Shown here: positions 55,782 through 63,990 of the stretch, piece by piece
Layout of the letters: every line of letters starts with the position of its first letter
How positions within the stretch are numbered: the first letter of the stretch is position 1
Source of the DNA: Escherichia phage HY01
DNA length: 64,000 nt
Strand: one strand, 5' to 3'
Sequence record: NC_027349.1
Notes under the pieces: model-generated
Told to the model about the DNA's origin: nothing
The model's input: only the letters and a program-made list of their open reading frames with translations
Database searches by the model: none
Program-made: the position numbers and the translations under genes

Positions 55782-56168
55782 TTATTCGAGGGAAAGAAGA
55801 TACTTACTCTGGTAAAACATTCCAGTAATATCATCTATCGTGCTTTGAATGGCTGGAGGCATTTCTTTGTAAATGCTGTTAGATTGGTCTAGTATACGAT
55901 CAATCATTTTAATTGTGTCGGTAGGAAGTTTACTAGCATCTGGAATTGAAGGTGTGTATTTTCTACCAGAATACCCCAAATACTGCTCACCAAATTTATC
56001 AATCAAATCTGGCAACTCAGAGAAAATAAAATCGTATGCCTTGTGTCTAGCATAACTTTTAGTTTCAAAATGCGCAGAATGAAAATAAGCTTGTGCAGCC
56101 ATTAATAAACCTAAGTATTCATCTGCCTTTGAAGGTTTTCCACTTTGTGAAAAGTCGCTGAATTTCAT
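55782..56168 (-). CDS. rI.-1: hypothetical protein upstream of rI
   Basis: 128-aa ORF overlapping the rI start. Confidence 0.5.
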
Positions 56169-56458
56169 TCAGTCTCCAATTTAATGTTCATAATTCTAGC
56201 GTATGATTGTGCCATCTCCGCGCCTCGTTCTATACATTCAAAATCGGAAGAGCACGGGTCATTTTTATAGGTCGTTCGCATAAAACTATAGAACTGTTCA
56301 GATGATTCTACGCTTTTATTTTCAAAAAGCATATAAACATGTCTAATACCAGATTCCATAAATTTATCAAAATGAGGATCGACATTCGCTTCAATCGGTG
56401 GAGATAAAGCAAACGCTAATCCTAGCATGGCAAATAGTGCCGTTGCTTTTAAGGCCAT
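56165..56458 (-). CDS. rI: lysis inhibition regulator (antiholin) RI
   Basis: 97 aa MALKATALFAMLGLAFALSPPIEANVDPHFDKFMESGIRHVYMLFENKS...; near-identical to T4 RI as recalled. Confidence 0.9.
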   Translation of the reverse strand: MALKATALFAMLGLAFALSPPIEANVDPHFDKFMESGIRHVYMLFENKSVESSEQFYSFMRTTYKNDPCSSDFECIERGAEMAQSYARIMNIKLETE

Positions 56459-56470
56459 AAAGGCCTCCTA

Positions 56471-56683
56471 TCATTTTTGTCCTGTATTTACTTTATGCCG
56501 ATGCACGGCCTTAACTTTATCAAGGTATTTTTCAAAATTTCGCAATCTAGTATAGTCTGCCGGAGATTGGTTGAGTGATACTTCTCGACGCAAAGCTGAA
56601 ATGATATTTCCAACTTCCCTACGAATTTCATCTAATTGAAGAACAGTAAGATTGCGAAGTTGCTTTTCAGTTAATTGTAGCAT
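56471..56683 (-). CDS. rI.1: hypothetical small protein
   Basis: 70-aa ORF. Confidence 0.45.
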
Positions 56684-56725
56684 ATATACCCCTTTAGTTA
56701 GATAAACCTATTTATAACTTTTGCA

Positions 56726-57307
56726 CTAACCGAGCTTTTTAGTTAATTCATTCCAATGTTTTCTGCACAAAGAAACATAAATTTCATCACCAATACAGAT
56801 TTGATTACCTTCTTTAACTGGTGTTCCATCTTCCATTAATCGAGCCGTCATAATCGCTTTTTTACCGCAATGACAAACTGCCTTTAGTTCAATAAGTTTA
56901 TCTGCAATCGCCAAAAGTTCTTTAGAACCTTCAAATAATTTTCCAGCGAAATCAGTCCTTAGACCATAAGCCATAACAGGAACATTGTATGTATCGACAA
57001 TTCGGCTTAATTGATGCACCTGTTCAGTTTTTAAAAACTGAGCTTCATCTACAAATACGCAATGAATATCTTTTTGTGCTTCAGCCCATTTATAGAACTC
57101 AAAAATATCCATATCATCCGTAATAATATTCGCTTCCTGCTTAATTCCAATGCGAGAAACGACTTCACAGACAGAATCGCGAGTATCAATAGCAGGCTTA
57201 AGAACTAATACACCCATTCCGCGTTCTTTATAATTATGCGCAGCAGTCAAAAGAGAAGCAGATTTTCCAGCATTCATTGCTGCATAAGTAAAAATTAAAC
57301 TCGCCAT
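56726..57307 (-). CDS. tk: thymidine kinase
   Basis: 193 aa with P-loop AAMNAGKS and a zinc-binding Cys cluster. Confidence 0.9.
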   Translation of the reverse strand: MASLIFTYAAMNAGKSASLLTAAHNYKERGMGVLVLKPAIDTRDSVCEVVSRIGIKQEANIITDDMDIFEFYKWAEAQKDIHCVFVDEAQFLKTEQVHQLSRIVDTYNVPVMAYGLRTDFAGKLFEGSKELLAIADKLIELKAVCHCGKKAIMTARLMEDGTPVKEGNQICIGDEIYVSLCRKHWNELTKKLG

Positions 57308-57316
57308 ATCACCTTC

Positions 57317-57502
57317 TTAAAGCGTATTCACATAAGCTATTAATTCGTTTTCTTTCTTATCAAACCGGTCAGCAAATTCTTCTTGTTGTTCGGGAGATAG
57401 CGGGCCGTATTCATCATAAAAGGTGTTTGCTTCTGCATTCTCATCTAGAAGTTCATGGATAAGCTCAAACAATTTATCTTTTTGTTCTTTACTCAGACTC
57501 AT
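57317..57502 (-). CDS. tk.1: hypothetical small acidic protein
   Basis: 61-aa ORF. Confidence 0.4.
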   Translation of the reverse strand: MSLSKEQKDKLFELIHELLDENAEANTFYDEYGPLSPEQQEEFADRFDKKENELIAYVNTL

Positions 57503-57668
57503 ATATTAATTTCCAGGAGTTTTAAAATAATTCGCTTTTGCTTAAATATTTCCGTAGTTAAATGGTCAGTATCTTTTTGACCGATTCCAACGGCAAAACC
57601 TTTATTAACAGCGAGTTCAATTAAATTATCAAGCTCACGTAACACTTCATATTGTAACTCAAAATTAT

Positions 57669-57896
57669 TCATTTTGGTTTACCTTCTTTAACGAAATCAG
57701 GATAAGGATAAAATCCTGAATAAAATCCTTCACCTTTATGATTGATGCATCCTTTATTAGAACAATAGCACCAATAGTCGAAATCACAGGCCATTTCATC
57801 ATTACATAAAGCAAAAACAACAGGCCATTTACACTTTTCACAATGGGCATTTTTAAGAATACTAGTTTGGCTCATAACCATGTAACCTTTAAGCAA
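57669..57896 (-). CDS. small Cys-rich protein (possible metal-binding)
   Basis: 75 aa with 8 Cys (CEKCKWP...CNDEMACDFDYWCYCSNKGC). Confidence 0.4.
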   Translation of the reverse strand: MLKGYMVMSQTSILKNAHCEKCKWPVVFALCNDEMACDFDYWCYCSNKGCINHKGEGFYSGFYPYPDFVKEGKPK

Positions 57897-58084
57897 TATT
57901 CTTCTACATGTTGTTTACGACCTTTCCTATCAATGAAGGTATATTCAACGAATGTTCCAATATAGTCTTTATCTACATCATGAGGACTATTAATTGGGCA
58001 TTTAGTACGGCAAATGCGTTTCCATTGACGAATAATTTCCACTTTGTTTTTAGGATCAAACGGATGCGGGCAATGTACTTTCAT
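57872..58084 (-). CDS. small Cys/His-rich protein
   Basis: 70-aa ORF. Confidence 0.35.
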   Translation of the reverse strand: MKVHCPHPFDPKNKVEIIRQWKRICRTKCPINSPHDVDKDYIGTFVEYTFIDRKGRKQHVEEYCLKVTWL

Positions 58085-58535
58085 AATCCACCACTATTAA
58101 ATCAATATCAGGAGTAAACATGTCGATTAATTTAGAAACCTTATCCCAATCACCGCCAGCAATACCACAACCTATGCGTGGAATGTAAATTACTGGTTTA
58201 AACAGAAGGGTCTCTGCCTGTAGATTTAATTCTATCATGCAGTTTACTAAAGCACCATAATCAAGATTAGGACCCGGTTCGTATTGCGTATACAGGTTAT
58301 AGCATATACCAAATCCCGTAGGACTATGTTTAAAAACAATAGACATATCGCCTAATTTATCGCGAGAACCGTACTCGGTAGTAGTTTTATCTATTTCTAA
58401 AATTTTAGGATAGGCCCTCGCTAATTGACCCGCTACACCTGAACCCATAGTATGAAAGCAGTTGCACCCGTGCGCAATAATATTACCTTGAAGAAATAGG
58501 GCGACAATATCGCCCTTGATATATTTTACAATCAT
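58056..58535 (-). CDS. macro-domain protein (ADP-ribose binding / ADP-ribosylhydrolase-like)
   Basis: 159 aa with macro-like motifs GDIVALFLQGNIIAHGCNCFHTMGSGVAG and IPRIGCGIAGGDW. Confidence 0.55.
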   Translation of the reverse strand: MIVKYIKGDIVALFLQGNIIAHGCNCFHTMGSGVAGQLARAYPKILEIDKTTTEYGSRDKLGDMSIVFKHSPTGFGICYNLYTQYEPGPNLDYGALVNCMIELNLQAETLLFKPVIYIPRIGCGIAGGDWDKVSKLIDMFTPDIDLIVVDYESTLPASV

Positions 58536-58873
58536 CTAGTACTCAATCCTCGATTATAAGAATCTACCAAACGGTCAACCATTGAATGACAAGCGGCTTT
58601 ATCTTTCTCCTCCGCAACTGAACATTCTAAGGTATTCCACTTTTTAGCATATCGTTTTAATAAAGTATCGTTCTTGTATCTACTTGATTTATCTCTTTCT
58701 CCGTCTTTATATGCATATATTAATTTCTGCGCAAATTCAGCTTGACATGCTTTATTTTTCCCACAATAATCCGCGGCAGTACGGTTTACATACTCTCTAA
58801 TTTCAGTGTATGATGTATTTGCTAACGCAGAAAATGAAATTAATCCTACACATAAAACCAAAATTTTAGTCAT
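58532..58873 (-). CDS. secreted Cys-containing protein
   Basis: 113 aa with N-terminal signal peptide MTKILVLCVGLISFSALA. Confidence 0.45.
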   Translation of the reverse strand: MTKILVLCVGLISFSALANTSYTEIREYVNRTAADYCGKNKACQAEFAQKLIYAYKDGERDKSSRYKNDTLLKRYAKKWNTLECSVAEEKDKAACHSMVDRLVDSYNRGLSTR

Positions 58874-59411
58874 TTACTATTTCCAACAGTTTATTATTTT
58901 TAAGGTAGTTAGCCTTTTCTAGGACTTCAGAAGCATATTTAGAACCTGCTTTAACATTCCATCCCGAATTATAAGAGGATATTGCCTTTCTTATATCGCC
59001 CTTATGTATATTTAACCAATAAGAAAGTTCAATGTACGCCCAGGAAGCTGAATTGGACCGTTTATTCAACATTCTTTTTATTTCAGCATCGGTCATATTA
59101 TAACCAAGTTCCTTAACTCTTGCTCGCATGGTCGGCAAATAATTTTGGAACATTCCATAGGCATGATGCTTTGGTTTAGATTTTAAATTAACTCCGGCAG
59201 AGCTTTCTTGCCATAAAATAGCAGCCATTATATGACCTAATCCACTCTTGTGGATATTTTTGTGTGTTTTATATTTTCCATCCTTAGAAAATTGTTCCCC
59301 GAATTGATATGCGTAACGCATGTTATCGAGTTGGACATTACTGAAAGTATGCTCGGAGCTATGTGCCATCATTGAAATGGCCAATAGACCAGCGAGTAGT
59401 GCTTTTCTCAT
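58866..59411 (-). CDS. secreted lytic transglycosylase-like protein (SLT domain)
   Basis: 181 aa with signal peptide and SLT motifs (LWQESS, AYGMFQ, SYNSG). Confidence 0.6.
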   Translation of the reverse strand: MRKALLAGLLAISMMAHSSEHTFSNVQLDNMRYAYQFGEQFSKDGKYKTHKNIHKSGLGHIMAAILWQESSAGVNLKSKPKHHAYGMFQNYLPTMRARVKELGYNMTDAEIKRMLNKRSNSASWAYIELSYWLNIHKGDIRKAISSYNSGWNVKAGSKYASEVLEKANYLKNNKLLEIVND

Positions 59412-59418
59412 GCTTACC

Positions 59419-59880
59419 TCATTGAGTTTTAATTACTGCTTTAGAAGCCTTTCCTGGTAAACGACGACTGTTAATAATTGCCATCCTGCACTGAAGCGAC
59501 GGGTCTTTGAACTTCGCATTAGGTTTACAAACTGTAAATCCAAGCCAAAGATTTCCATCTGTGATTTCTAAACGCCCAGGACGATATTCAACCCCATCAA
59601 TAAAATCCTCGTCAATGTCAGGACGCGGAGGCATACTCAGGAATTCATTAACTTCTAAAACATGGTCTTTTATTTTGTGGAATAATTCAAAAACATATGT
59701 CTCATCAATCTCCCGTTGAATTGCACGATCAAGAAGATGTTGAGAATATTTTAGATGAAACGATGAGACCCCTGCTGCTTTTGATGCCTCACGAATCTCA
59801 TTGTTAATTTGACGAAACTCCGACTCAAAGTGACGACGGAGCTTATTTCGACGGATAAAAACTTCTGTGTTGATAGTCAT
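59419..59880 (-). CDS. regB: RegB endoribonuclease
   Basis: 153 aa; matches T4 RegB as recalled. Confidence 0.88.
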   Translation of the reverse strand: MTINTEVFIRRNKLRRHFESEFRQINNEIREASKAAGVSSFHLKYSQHLLDRAIQREIDETYVFELFHKIKDHVLEVNEFLSMPPRPDIDEDFIDGVEYRPGRLEITDGNLWLGFTVCKPNAKFKDPSLQCRMAIINSRRLPGKASKAVIKTQ

Positions 59881-59939
59881 GTTATTCTCCTCTTAACTGA
59901 TAGAAAAATTATACCACAGTCAAGAGGAAAAGTAAACAG

Positions 59940-60260
59940 TTATTCTTTAAATCTAATCAATTTATTCATAGACTTTGAAACTTCTGCACGAACCTCATGT
60001 AGGTTTTTGAGCTGTTCAAGACGCTGCTCATAGTAAGCAATTTCATCTTCTTCGAGACAGTCCTGTGAATCTTCTTTAAGATAACGTGCATAGTCCTGGA
60101 AAGCTTTACGGACTACTTCCTGGAAGTCATCAAGACTTTGAATTTTCTTAGGAGCAACAGATACACGACGAGGGGCAGTATAATACTCATAACCAAACCC
60201 TACGCTTAATTGAGCCATTAATATTTTTCCTCTGGTTGGAACACAGCACGACAAGCCCAC
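59940..60260 (-). CDS. vs.3: hypothetical protein
   Basis: 106-aa ORF. Confidence 0.4.
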
Positions 60261-60484
60261 ATACTGGCTTCTTTGAGTTTCGTTTTAGCAATAGTTAACT
60301 GATCGAGGCTTTCAGCATAATTCTTTGCGAATTCACAGTCTTCACAATTATCCAGTGCTTCCCAGAATTCATCATATAAAGCATCAAAGATAAGTCCTAA
60401 ACGAACTTCAGCGTCTTTGATAGCATTCACTTTACCGATTTTCTCTTCAGTGTGCGGCTTATAACCTTTAATGTCTTCAATCAT
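60218..60484 (-). CDS. hypothetical acidic protein (vs.4 position; Acb2-like by synteny only)
   Basis: 88-aa ORF two genes upstream of regB. Confidence 0.4.
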
Positions 60485-60698
60485 ATTCTACTTCCTCACC
60501 TGTTCCCAAATCATATTCAACTAAACGAATAGGCTCATGAATGCCATATCCTTGAACAGAAATTTCTGTCGTAGGATAAATTCCATTAATATCACCCATG
60601 TTCCACGCTTCATTAAATTGCTGTTCGCCTGAATTACTAAACCACTCGGCGAAAGCATTTAGCACATCTTTAGAACCTTCAATAATTATCTTTGCCAT
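60477..60698 (-). CDS. hypothetical small acidic protein
   Basis: 73-aa ORF. Confidence 0.4.
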   Translation of the reverse strand: MAKIIIEGSKDVLNAFAEWFSNSGEQQFNEAWNMGDINGIYPTTEISVQGYGIHEPIRLVEYDLGTGEEVEYD

Positions 60699-61060
60699 TA
60701 CAAACTCTCAGTAAAGGTACGAGCGATAACGTCGCGCTGCTGTTCCGGAGTCAGAGAGTTAAAGCGAACTGCATATCCGGATACACGGATGGTCAGCTGC
60801 GGATATTTTTCCGGATGCTTAACTGCATCTTCCAGAGTTTCACGACGCAGAACGTTTACGTTCAGGTGTTGACCACCCTCAATTTTAACTGTAGGCTGTG
60901 TTTCAATTTCAATTTCACGGGCATGCAAACCATAGAAAATTTCTGGGTCTACAAAAGAGTCCTCTTTAAAAGTTTTAGAGACAATAATTCGTGCTTGAAT
61001 ACCGTCTTCAAAATAAATAGTACCTTTATGCGTGCCTTCAAGAATTTGATATGCTTTCAT
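60698..61060 (-). CDS. autonomous glycyl-radical cofactor (GrcA/YfiD-like)
   Basis: 120 aa; C-terminal about 60 residues [61 protein letters not shown] match E. coli GrcA as recalled. Confidence 0.8.
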
Positions 61061-61070
61061 ATAACCCCTC

Positions 61071-61451
61071 TCAATTAGAAAATAAATTTATCCAAGATTG
61101 CTCTTTAATTAAAAATGGCTCAGAATCATATGCCATTAAACTTTGGGTAATTAGTCCTTTAAAAGGCCCATCAATAAATTCCATGGTAAAATATGGAATT
61201 TTATTCATTAATCTTGCATTAGGAGCAGTGCATAAAACTCTGCATCCTTTGAATACACCTTTTTGTAATTTGTATTGCTTAGGATAAAATTCACTCAAGA
61301 CGTTGTTATTTGCCAAAATTTCAAAATGATTCACCAATTTATTTTTAATAGTTTTTGGCGAAAAATAAAGATATTCGAAAAGTTGCGTGTCTGTCATCAT
61401 TGCATTCCGATTATGAAAAACTGTGGACGAGTAATACCACCAATGCAACAT
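61071..61451 (-). CDS. hypothetical protein
   Basis: 126-aa ORF (start probably internal). Confidence 0.35.
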
Positions 61452-61984
61452 TTACTATTGCAACAGTGGTGCACAGTTTCAATATGAATATCGTAAATTT
61501 TATCCATATCAGGAGATTTAACAGGCTCATCAATTATATACAAAATCCGCGAAAGCGATAAACCTCTGAACTTGCTTCCTTTATTACCGATAAAACTACG
61601 GACAGAATCGGTAAATAAGCGGAATCGAATATCATCGCCAGAATAACGAGAAAATTCTTTTTTAATGTGGCCCGCAGAAATTTTAGCGTAAGCTGAAGTA
61701 TTAGAAAGAACAATAACTGTTCCACCATCATACAGCCAATTAGCAGCAAAGTTAGTCACAGCAGTTGATTTACCGGATTGTCTGCCACCATCTAATCGAA
61801 GTGTGCAATACTGCTTGAGTAAGTCTTCAAATGGTGGGATATAATCGTTTTTACAAATTTCTTCTACTCTAGCATCAGAATGGTGTGTAAAAGCATTCAT
61901 CAGGGATAGATAAGGACCAGTTAAAAATGTTCTCATTTTATTCTCTCTAAATTTGGGCCATTCCATGGCGCATGAATTGTCCAT
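61397..61984 (-). CDS. P-loop NTPase-like protein
   Basis: 195-aa ORF with Walker A GGRQSGKST and a Cys cluster HHCCNSKCC; start may be the internal Met near 61936. Confidence 0.45.
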   Translation of the reverse strand: MDNSCAMEWPKFRENKMRTFLTGPYLSLMNAFTHHSDARVEEICKNDYIPPFEDLLKQYCTLRLDGGRQSGKSTAVTNFAANWLYDGGTVIVLSNTSAYAKISAGHIKKEFSRYSGDDIRFRLFTDSVRSFIGNKGSKFRGLSLSRILYIIDEPVKSPDMDKIYDIHIETVHHCCNSKCCIGGITRPQFFIIGMQ

Positions 61985-62089
61985 TTCTGTATTTACCCAT
62001 TACCGCACTTGGGCTCGACCTTATTACAGGTTGGCGGGAATCCCTCACAGAATCATGAGGTCCAGGTTGTTCCCATATTTCTTATTTGC

Positions 62090-62563
62090 TTATTTGAATG
62101 ATTTAACGTACTGAATAGAACCTTTACTATTTACAAAGGCAATTTTACCATTTTTATTGTACATAGTAGCAGTACGCTGATAACCATAAGTTTGTTTACC
62201 AGATTGATAACCAACTAATGCGAAATTATCTTCGCCCATTTTATTCTGTTTAGCGCGGATGCGTTCATGACCGTGTGCCATAAGAACCTTAGCATCACCA
62301 GTTGAAATTGATCTACGAGTTTTTTCATCTTCAACTGTATTAACAAAGTCGTCAAATGAATCAAATTTAGCATGGGATTTATTATACAGTTTTCCATCTA
62401 CTGCATAATTATATCCCTGTACATCCATCTCAACTTCTGTACCATCATCCAATACAGCAGTGATTTTTTGACCTTTTTTAAATTTCAAAAGATCAGTAAA
62501 AGATTCAGCAATAATTTGAGAATTAATAGCTGCTTCAGTGATAAATTCTTGATATGTTTTCAT
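62090..62563 (-). CDS. capsid-targeted internal protein (IP family), distinct from T4 IPII/IPIII
   Basis: 157 aa beginning MKTYQEFITEA (capsid targeting sequence consensus); between denV and e. Confidence 0.65.
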   Translation of the reverse strand: MKTYQEFITEAAINSQIIAESFTDLLKFKKGQKITAVLDDGTEVEMDVQGYNYAVDGKLYNKSHAKFDSFDDFVNTVEDEKTRRSISTGDAKVLMAHGHERIRAKQNKMGEDNFALVGYQSGKQTYGYQRTATMYNKNGKIAFVNSKGSIQYVKSFK

Positions 62564-62572
62564 ATGTTTCCT

Positions 62573-62989
62573 TTAAATGTAAATATTTTTGCCGTAATAC
62601 TTGTACCAGTGTGGCTTCATTAAAATTTTTTTATCGAGTCGTTGTTGACTCAATTTAATAGCTGATTTGCATGGATTATAATCATTTTTCCATTCTGCTG
62701 GAATATCGCTGATGTCAGGAACTTCAGTATCTTTTATACTAAACCCACGTTTTAAGCATTCCATTATAATGTCTGATTGACGCTTTCGCAAAAATTCTAA
62801 CTTGTCGTAAAAGAACGTAACATGACCAGAACCTAAAATAAACTCGGAAGATATTTTAAAATCTTTAACCCGCTTACCATTTGCCACGTGTTTACGAACT
62901 ATACCAAAAACGCGTGGCAATTCACGGTATTCTGCGATTAAATGTTGATCAGCAAGTTCAGATACTAAAGTCAAATTAATACGAGTCAT
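62573..62989 (-). CDS. denV: endonuclease V (pyrimidine dimer DNA glycosylase)
   Basis: 138 aa [17 protein letters not shown]...; matches T4 endo V family. Confidence 0.9.
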
Positions 62990-63579: not shown

Positions 63580-63580
<1 letters not shown>

Positions 63581-63990
63581 TAAAAGAGGCTGTTCATTAT
63601 TCGGTAAAGTGAAGGACCCATCACATATTGCCACTGGGTACGAGGAATAAGAGCAAAAGCGTCCATCTCTGGAATCATAATGCCATCTTTATTTTCAAAA
63701 TAAGACTCACAATGGCAATTTCTAAACATCTCATGCTCTACTGGAATCGTATAATAAAATAACTGTAAGTCTTTATTACTAGAATATTTAAATACACCTA
63801 GGTCTTCTAGAAGGTCTGGATTATAATTGCTAAAACCAGTCTCTTCTAAACATTCTCTTCGTGCTGCATCTAGTGCGTTTAAATCAGAATTTTCTACGCG
63901 GCCCTTTGGGATATCCCAGCGATGTGCCATCATTCCAGGCTTACGAGAACCAGTAACCCGACCCATAAATAAATCTTTATCTTCTGTCAT
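63580..63990 (-). CDS. nudE: Nudix hydrolase
   Basis: 136 aa with Nudix box GRVENSDLNALDAARRECLEETGF. Confidence 0.85.

Follow-up and report, generated by a model that had tools for sequence, protein, structure and literature searches.

A small acidic gene upstream of regB in a T4-like Tequatrovirus is vs.4/acb2, with a product identical to the cyclic-dinucleotide sponge of T4

The 64,000-nucleotide stretch of Escherichia phage HY01 DNA analyzed here (NC_027349.1; the window, in what follows) carries a small minus-strand reading frame just before the endoribonuclease gene regB, and the question it raises is whether the product is a sponge for the cyclic nucleotides used in bacterial immune signaling. 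A preliminary description, made from the letters alone, had seen an acidic 88-residue reading frame at 60218-60484 in the slot of T4 vs.4, the second gene upstream of regB in transcription order, and had proposed an Acb2-like sponge on the strength of gene order. Both observations are correct. In the open reading frame list of the window, the frame runs from an ATG start through 88 codons to a TAA stop; the product is acidic (19 D+E vs 12 K+R; calculated pI 4.66), with a mass of 10.2 kDa. T4 (NC_000866) and PP01 annotate vs.4 in exactly this slot. The evidence presented below makes it nearly certain that this frame is vs.4/acb2 of a T4-like Tequatrovirus, and that its product sponges cyclic dinucleotides against CBASS. 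The gene itself is laid out as follows:

60218..60484, minus strand: vs.4/acb2 coding sequence, 88 aa plus TAA (ORF list; 88/88 to 7UQ2 and T4 vs.4; PF24729)
60492..60497, minus strand: Shine-Dalgarno-like GAGGAA, 7-8 nt upstream of the vs.4 ATG and within the 3' end of vs.5 (read from the sequence)
60477..60484, minus strand: ATGATTGA junction, in which the vs.4 start and the vs.5 stop share 8 nt (sequence and ORF list)
60216..60220, minus strand: TAATG junction, in which the vs.4 stop and the vs.3 start share one base (sequence; the T4 and PP01 annotations show this 1-nt overlap too)

In a search of all PDB chain sequences, the window protein matched 7UQ2, the crystallized, cGAMP-bound T4 Vs.4, at 88 of 88 residues (E 1.9e-57), and the translated vs.4 genes of the T4 reference NC_000866, PP01 and PEC04 are likewise identical to it. 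The preliminary description had named alignment to T4 Vs.4/Acb2 as the check to be made, and lack of similarity to Acb2 as grounds for giving up the idea of a sponge; the opposite was found. Family models agree with the alignment. Pfam PF24729 (Acb2/Tad1, hairpin domain) scored 71.4 bits where its curated threshold asks for 27, and the match takes in the whole profile (positions 1-58 of 58); all four phage homologs of Vs.4 that were fetched pass this threshold too. Among the PHROGs, the protein falls in phrog_717 (E 2.3e-32), the family by which Jenson et al. defined Vs.4 homologs (PMC10097602). Weak full-length matches were obtained to PaMx33 Acb2 ("p26", 8H2J and 8IXZ; E about 0.03, phmmer E 0.026), aligned over residues 4-85, and a tblastn search found the Vs.4 protein in 1,234 phage records. 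The candidate sponge of the preliminary description is therefore a member of the Acb2 family by curated-model match, by identity to a characterized member, and by its ligand-pocket and hexamer-interface residues. The interpretation was right, but it now rests on sequence identity instead of synteny alone, and the gene is one already known.

The codons for the residues that matter most in the ligand pocket can be located directly:

60461..60463, minus strand: Y8 codon; Y8 stacks on a cGAMP purine base and corresponds to PaMx33 Acb2 Y11 (residue check; role from Jenson et al., 2023; invariant in the alignment)
60416..60418, minus strand: K23 codon; salt bridge or hydrogen bond to cGAMP, corresponding to PaMx33 Acb2 K26 (residue check; literature; alignment)
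60239..60250, minus strand: R79-A80-V81-F82 codons; R79 contacts cGAMP and F82 stacks on a base (residue check; R79 invariant; F82C is a Panoptes escape mutation of T4)

The window frame has each of the 13 residues that Jenson et al. tested or named (Y8, H11, T12, K23, L29, F33, L60, A66, A73, S74, A77, R79, and F82). These include every published cGAMP-contact residue (Y8, H11, K23, R79, and F82), with S74 near the ligand, and the hexamer-interface residues L29, F33, A66, A73, and A77. When the window protein was aligned with the homologs of CC31, RB16, Yersinia phage TG1, a 46-kb siphovirus, and PaMx33, the invariant positions were G7, Y8, K23, R79, and P84.

The biology of the identical protein has been established in T4. 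The gene was found by a forward screen for T4 mutants sensitized to CBASS with inactive Cap2, and the T4 vs.4 knockout is down about 50-fold on that system (Jenson et al., Nature 2023; PMC10097602). In the same study, purified Vs.4 (residues 1-88) had a Kd of about 30 nM for 3'3'-cGAMP. Crystallography and ultracentrifugation showed a hexamer that takes up three cGAMP molecules, one in each of three inter-subunit pockets, where Y8 and F82 provide base stacking, and Y8, H11, K23, and R79 supply hydrogen bonds or salt bridges (PMC10097602). Inhibition of CapV was abolished by mutations in the pocket (Y8, F82, S74N) or at the interface (L29, A66, A73, A77, A77I) (PMC10097602). A Kd of about 84 nM for cGAMP was reported by Cao et al. 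for T4-Acb2, whose cyclic-dinucleotide spectrum is the same as that of PaMx33-Acb2 (PMC10312549). More recently, T4 acb2/vs.4 was found to be both necessary and sufficient to trigger Panoptes defense, through sequestration of the decoy 2'3'-c-di-AMP; F82C and Y8A abolish the triggering, and F82C is an escape mutation in T4 (Sullivan et al., Nature 2025; PMC12657218). As for timing, vs.4 is listed in T4 omics tables under early RNA and middle protein, hence detected as protein (PMC9697503 supplements), unlike in one atlas paper, which describes its expression as mainly middle/late.

In comparison with T4, the window gene encodes the same protein (88/88), lies likewise upstream of regB with vs.5 and vs.3 on either side, and overlaps both neighbors at the same junctions, so the same mechanism would be expected. 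Probably made from early transcripts and accumulating by mid-infection, this 10-kDa helical-hairpin protein would assemble into a hexamer with three inter-subunit pockets, each predicted to hold one cyclic dinucleotide, the best-studied ligand being 3'3'-cGAMP at tens-of-nanomolar affinity. Y8 and F82 would stack on the bases, and Y8, H11, K23, and R79 would contact the ligand. By holding the signal without degrading it, Vs.4 would prevent cGAMP made by the CBASS cyclase of the host from reaching the phospholipase CapV and other effectors, and sequestration of cGAMP would spare the infected cell from self-destruction. The sponge activity may also be a liability, as in hosts with Panoptes, which make the decoy 2'3'-c-di-AMP, sequestration of the decoy by Acb2 would set off defense. 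Sequence, residues, family, and gene context can be read in the window itself, while hexamer, binding, CBASS antagonism, and Panoptes triggering come from the literature on the identical protein; we infer from the sequence that the published behavior holds likewise in the phage of the window, and no feature of the sequence speaks to the contrary. In this respect vs.4 adds no new mechanism.

The spectrum of ligands is expected to be that of the T4 type. A broad-spectrum Acb2 subgroup (PaMx33/JBD67 type), which binds cyclic trinucleotides in addition to cyclic dinucleotides, is defined by a second pocket with R67 and T74 (PaMx33 numbering), a kinked helix, and binding of cA3/cAAG. The window protein falls outside it: D61 and T68 were confirmed at the positions of R67 and T74, respectively. 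In T4-Acb2, D61 sits where PaMx33 has R67, the pocket is narrower, and neither cA3 nor cAAG is bound; a D61R mutant still does not bind cA3 (PMC10312549). The window protein, as a T4-type Acb2, would thus be without cyclic trinucleotide binding. PaMx33 Acb2 (p26; 8H2J, 8IXZ; Huiting et al., 2023; Cao et al.) shares with it PF24729, a hexamer with three cyclic-dinucleotide pockets, and the equivalence of Y11/K26 to Y8/K23, but it is only about 24% identical to the T4-type protein (PMC10312549) and binds cyclic trinucleotides in its second pocket (R67/T74), whereas the T4 type has D61, a smaller pocket, and no cA3/cAAG binding. Tad1 (Thoeris anti-defense 1) is covered by the same Acb2/Tad1 hairpin domain model and likewise works as a sponge; however, it is a distinct family that targets gcADPR (and some cyclic dinucleotides and trinucleotides), and the window protein is an Acb2.

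It could be argued that a member of the Acb2 family mainly targets a different immune signal, for example the 3'cADPR of type I Thoeris, with anti-CBASS activity being secondary. Some Acb2 homologs do act on 3'cADPR. However, the Thoeris-directed homolog Acb2_43 binds its ligand differently (by L6/V7, on a beta strand) and does not inhibit CBASS, whereas the window protein is identical to T4 Acb2, which has nanomolar affinity for cGAMP and without which T4 becomes more sensitive to CBASS (PMC10097602, PMC10312549), and it keeps the cGAMP-type pocket Y8/K23/R79/F82. A Thoeris-directed variant was rejected on this identity and this pocket, and we regard such a reading as very improbable.

The window and T4 vs.4 genes have 13 nucleotide differences, all at third codon positions and all synonymous (13 synonymous, 0 non-synonymous). 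Since neighboring genes do show some amino-acid change relative to T4 (synonymous/non-synonymous: vs.3, 3/3; regB, 12/1; vs.6, 9/2), the pattern points to strong purifying selection on Vs.4. Upstream, a further TAATG overlap links vs.6 to vs.5, and the succession of overlapping junctions from vs.6 through vs.5 and vs.4 to vs.3 (TAATG, ATGATTGA, TAATG) suggests translational coupling.

A sigma-70-type scan of 59300-62200 returned 9 sites against 9.6 expected from shuffles, and no vs.4 promoter was located. The strongest sigma-70-like site (59936-59908, minus strand; TTTACT-17 nt-TATAAT with an extended -10 TG, 10/12 matches) sits downstream of vs.4, within the 59 nt that separate vs.3 from regB; it is a candidate that would serve as regB's own promoter. 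MotA-box-like sequences (TGCTT-N12-15-TANNNT) occur 38 times in the whole window, mostly on the minus strand, against about 20 expected, and 0 of 100 shuffles reached 38. Such an excess would fit an early/middle region with many middle promoters of the T4 type. The same pattern has no minus-strand (coding-strand) match between vs.4 and 62090, and no minus-strand terminator-like sites were found within the vs block, for which the TadIV-1 paper uses the wording "the promoter of vs.8" (PMC13243611). That vs.4 might be a conserved but decaying or unexpressed remnant, kept only through tight gene packing, could draw on the missing dedicated promoter (sigma-70-type and MotA-box scans) and on nearby small genes that are unstable in annotation or frame (vs.5 in the T4 reference, the vs.8 N-terminus in the window), but it was rejected as scarcely credible in view of the silent-only divergence from T4, the intact frame with its Shine-Dalgarno sequence and coupled junctions, the detection of the identical T4 protein in proteomics classes (PMC9697503 supplements), and the loss of vs.4 by T4 only under Panoptes selection (PMC12657218).

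The genomic setting agrees with the identification of the frame as vs.4/acb2. Escherichia phage PEC04 (KR233165.1), a Tequatrovirus with E. coli O157:H7 as isolation host, matches the window at 100% identity over bases 59400-61100 and at 99.9% over bases 40000-64000. Identity at the DNA level is 94.5% to T4 for the block 58386-62078 and 97.3% to PP01 for 56001-62576. The gene with only 13 silent differences from T4 is embedded in the genome of another, PEC04-like Tequatrovirus. When the reading frames were compared with the T4 and PP01 annotations, the order vs.8-vs.7-vs.6-vs.5-vs.4-vs.3-regB-vs.1-vs was found on one strand, with vs.4 inside an uninterrupted minus-strand run (regB <- vs.3 <- vs.4 <- vs.5 <- vs.6). 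The immediate neighbors are:

60698-61060, minus strand: vs.6, GrcA-like, with a glycine-radical domain (Pfam PF01228, 67 bits)
60477..60698, minus strand: vs.5, 73 aa, acidic and intact, upstream of and overlapping vs.4 (PHROG 1986 matched end to end)
59940..60218, minus strand: vs.3 (TadIV-1), 92 aa, the N7-cADPR sponge gene directly downstream of vs.4 (96.7% to T4 Vs.3; 9WIW, E 1.2e-37)
59419..59880, minus strand: regB endoribonuclease, the synteny anchor (Pfam PF10715, REGB_T4, 230 bits)

In the Tevenvirinae sampled (T4, PP01, CC31, TG1), the Acb2 gene lies 0-1 genes upstream of regB. In the Pseudotevenvirus RB16, however, the Acb2 homolog comes after vs.6, and in the siphovirus vB_EcoS-716R3 it comes after lysis genes, in both cases with no regB nearby. 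For this reason synteny alone would not carry far: gene order is limited evidence for Acb2, and it is sequence comparison alone that makes the assignment secure.

The gene directly downstream encodes a sponge as well. T4 Vs.3 was recently described as TadIV-1, which forms dimers, sponges N7-cADPR specifically, and acts as an inhibitor of type IV Thoeris (2026; PMC13243611). The matching structure, PDB 9WIW, bears the deposition name "Endoribonuclease", although the paper identifies it as apo TadIV-1 of phage UPEC07 (PMC13243611). R17, R18, and K24 are important for N7-cADPR binding, and only "long" (>80 aa) TadIV-1 homologs are active (PMC13243611); the window Vs.3 is of the long form (92 aa) and carries R17, R18, and K24. 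Two unrelated immune-signal sponge genes are thus found in tandem, overlapping by start and stop. Both code for small two-helix phage sponges for an immune nucleotide signal, but TadIV-1, unlike Vs.4, belongs to an unrelated family, is a dimer with a flexible N-terminal loop pocket, and is N7-cADPR-specific, acting against type IV Thoeris instead of CBASS. Vs.4 is not mentioned in the TadIV-1 paper (PMC13243611). Vs.3 homologs were found in 723 phage records vs 1,234 for Vs.4, and in CC31 no homology to Vs.3 was detectable for the gene that follows vs.4 (blastp E 0.076).

On the other side of vs.4, the intact Vs.5 of the window had no match in Pfam or among PDB sequences. In the T4 reference (NC_000866, 63381-63557), vs.5 lacks one C after codon 17 (GCCGAG -> GCGAG), which leads to a frameshifted 58-aa product. 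The frame is intact in T4 strain 147 (KJ477685) and PP01, although neither record shows it: the PP01 annotation gives a 45-aa ORF in an alternative frame, and that of strain 147 leaves the stretch empty. The frameshift is likely an old sequencing error or a strain polymorphism, and because of it full-length Vs.5 has probably never been tested from the T4 reference sequence. One might imagine that vs.6-vs.5-vs.4-vs.3 form a co-translated "immune-signal sponge cassette" in which intact Vs.5 is a further anti-defense protein, but we consider this unlikely. Type IV Thoeris was not inhibited by Vs.5 when T4 vs.3-vs.8 were tested singly (PMC13243611).

In practical terms, the gene can be labeled acb2/vs.4 with near certainty, even though most of the phage records listed call it "hypothetical protein". 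This T4-like, O157:H7-infecting phage is predicted to resist CBASS systems that use cGAMP or other cyclic dinucleotides, to be sensitive to Panoptes-type decoy defenses and, by way of vs.3/TadIV-1, to resist type IV Thoeris. The natural hosts of PEC04-like phages may or may not carry CBASS. What is new here is at the level of annotation only, namely the records still reading "hypothetical protein", the tandem arrangement of the sponge genes, and the intact Vs.5 of the window.

Several other features of the region deserve mention. The gene tk.4 (58056-58535, minus strand) encodes a 159-aa macro-domain protein (PF01661, 32 bits), annotated in T4 as "A1pp phosphatase motif". The macro domain is an ADP-ribose-binding or -processing fold, encoded here a few genes away from the two sponges and from NudE (63580-63990), and a link of tk.4 to ADP-ribose-based defenses is possible. 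Between vs.8 and e (62090-62989, minus strand), the window has a gene for a 157-aa DUF7412 protein (318 bits) followed by denV (138 aa), where T4 has denV, ipII, and ipIII. The window thus differs from T4 in carrying a DUF7412/IpIV-like gene between vs.8 and denV, whereas T4 carries ipII and ipIII after denV. PP01 names its DUF7412 counterpart internal head protein IpIV, and the internal-protein region appears to be mosaic among Tequatroviruses.

The N-terminal frame of vs.8 (61397-62089, minus strand) also differs from that of T4. The first ~33 residues of T4 Vs.8 (MRDSRQPVIRSSPSAVMGKYRNGQFM...) are found in the window as a separate 33-codon frame ending in a stop (61947-62048), and the remainder of Vs.8 runs in another frame from about MRTFLTGPY; PP01 annotates a shorter, 179-aa form. 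The segment 61985-62089 is unusually G+C-rich for this genome.
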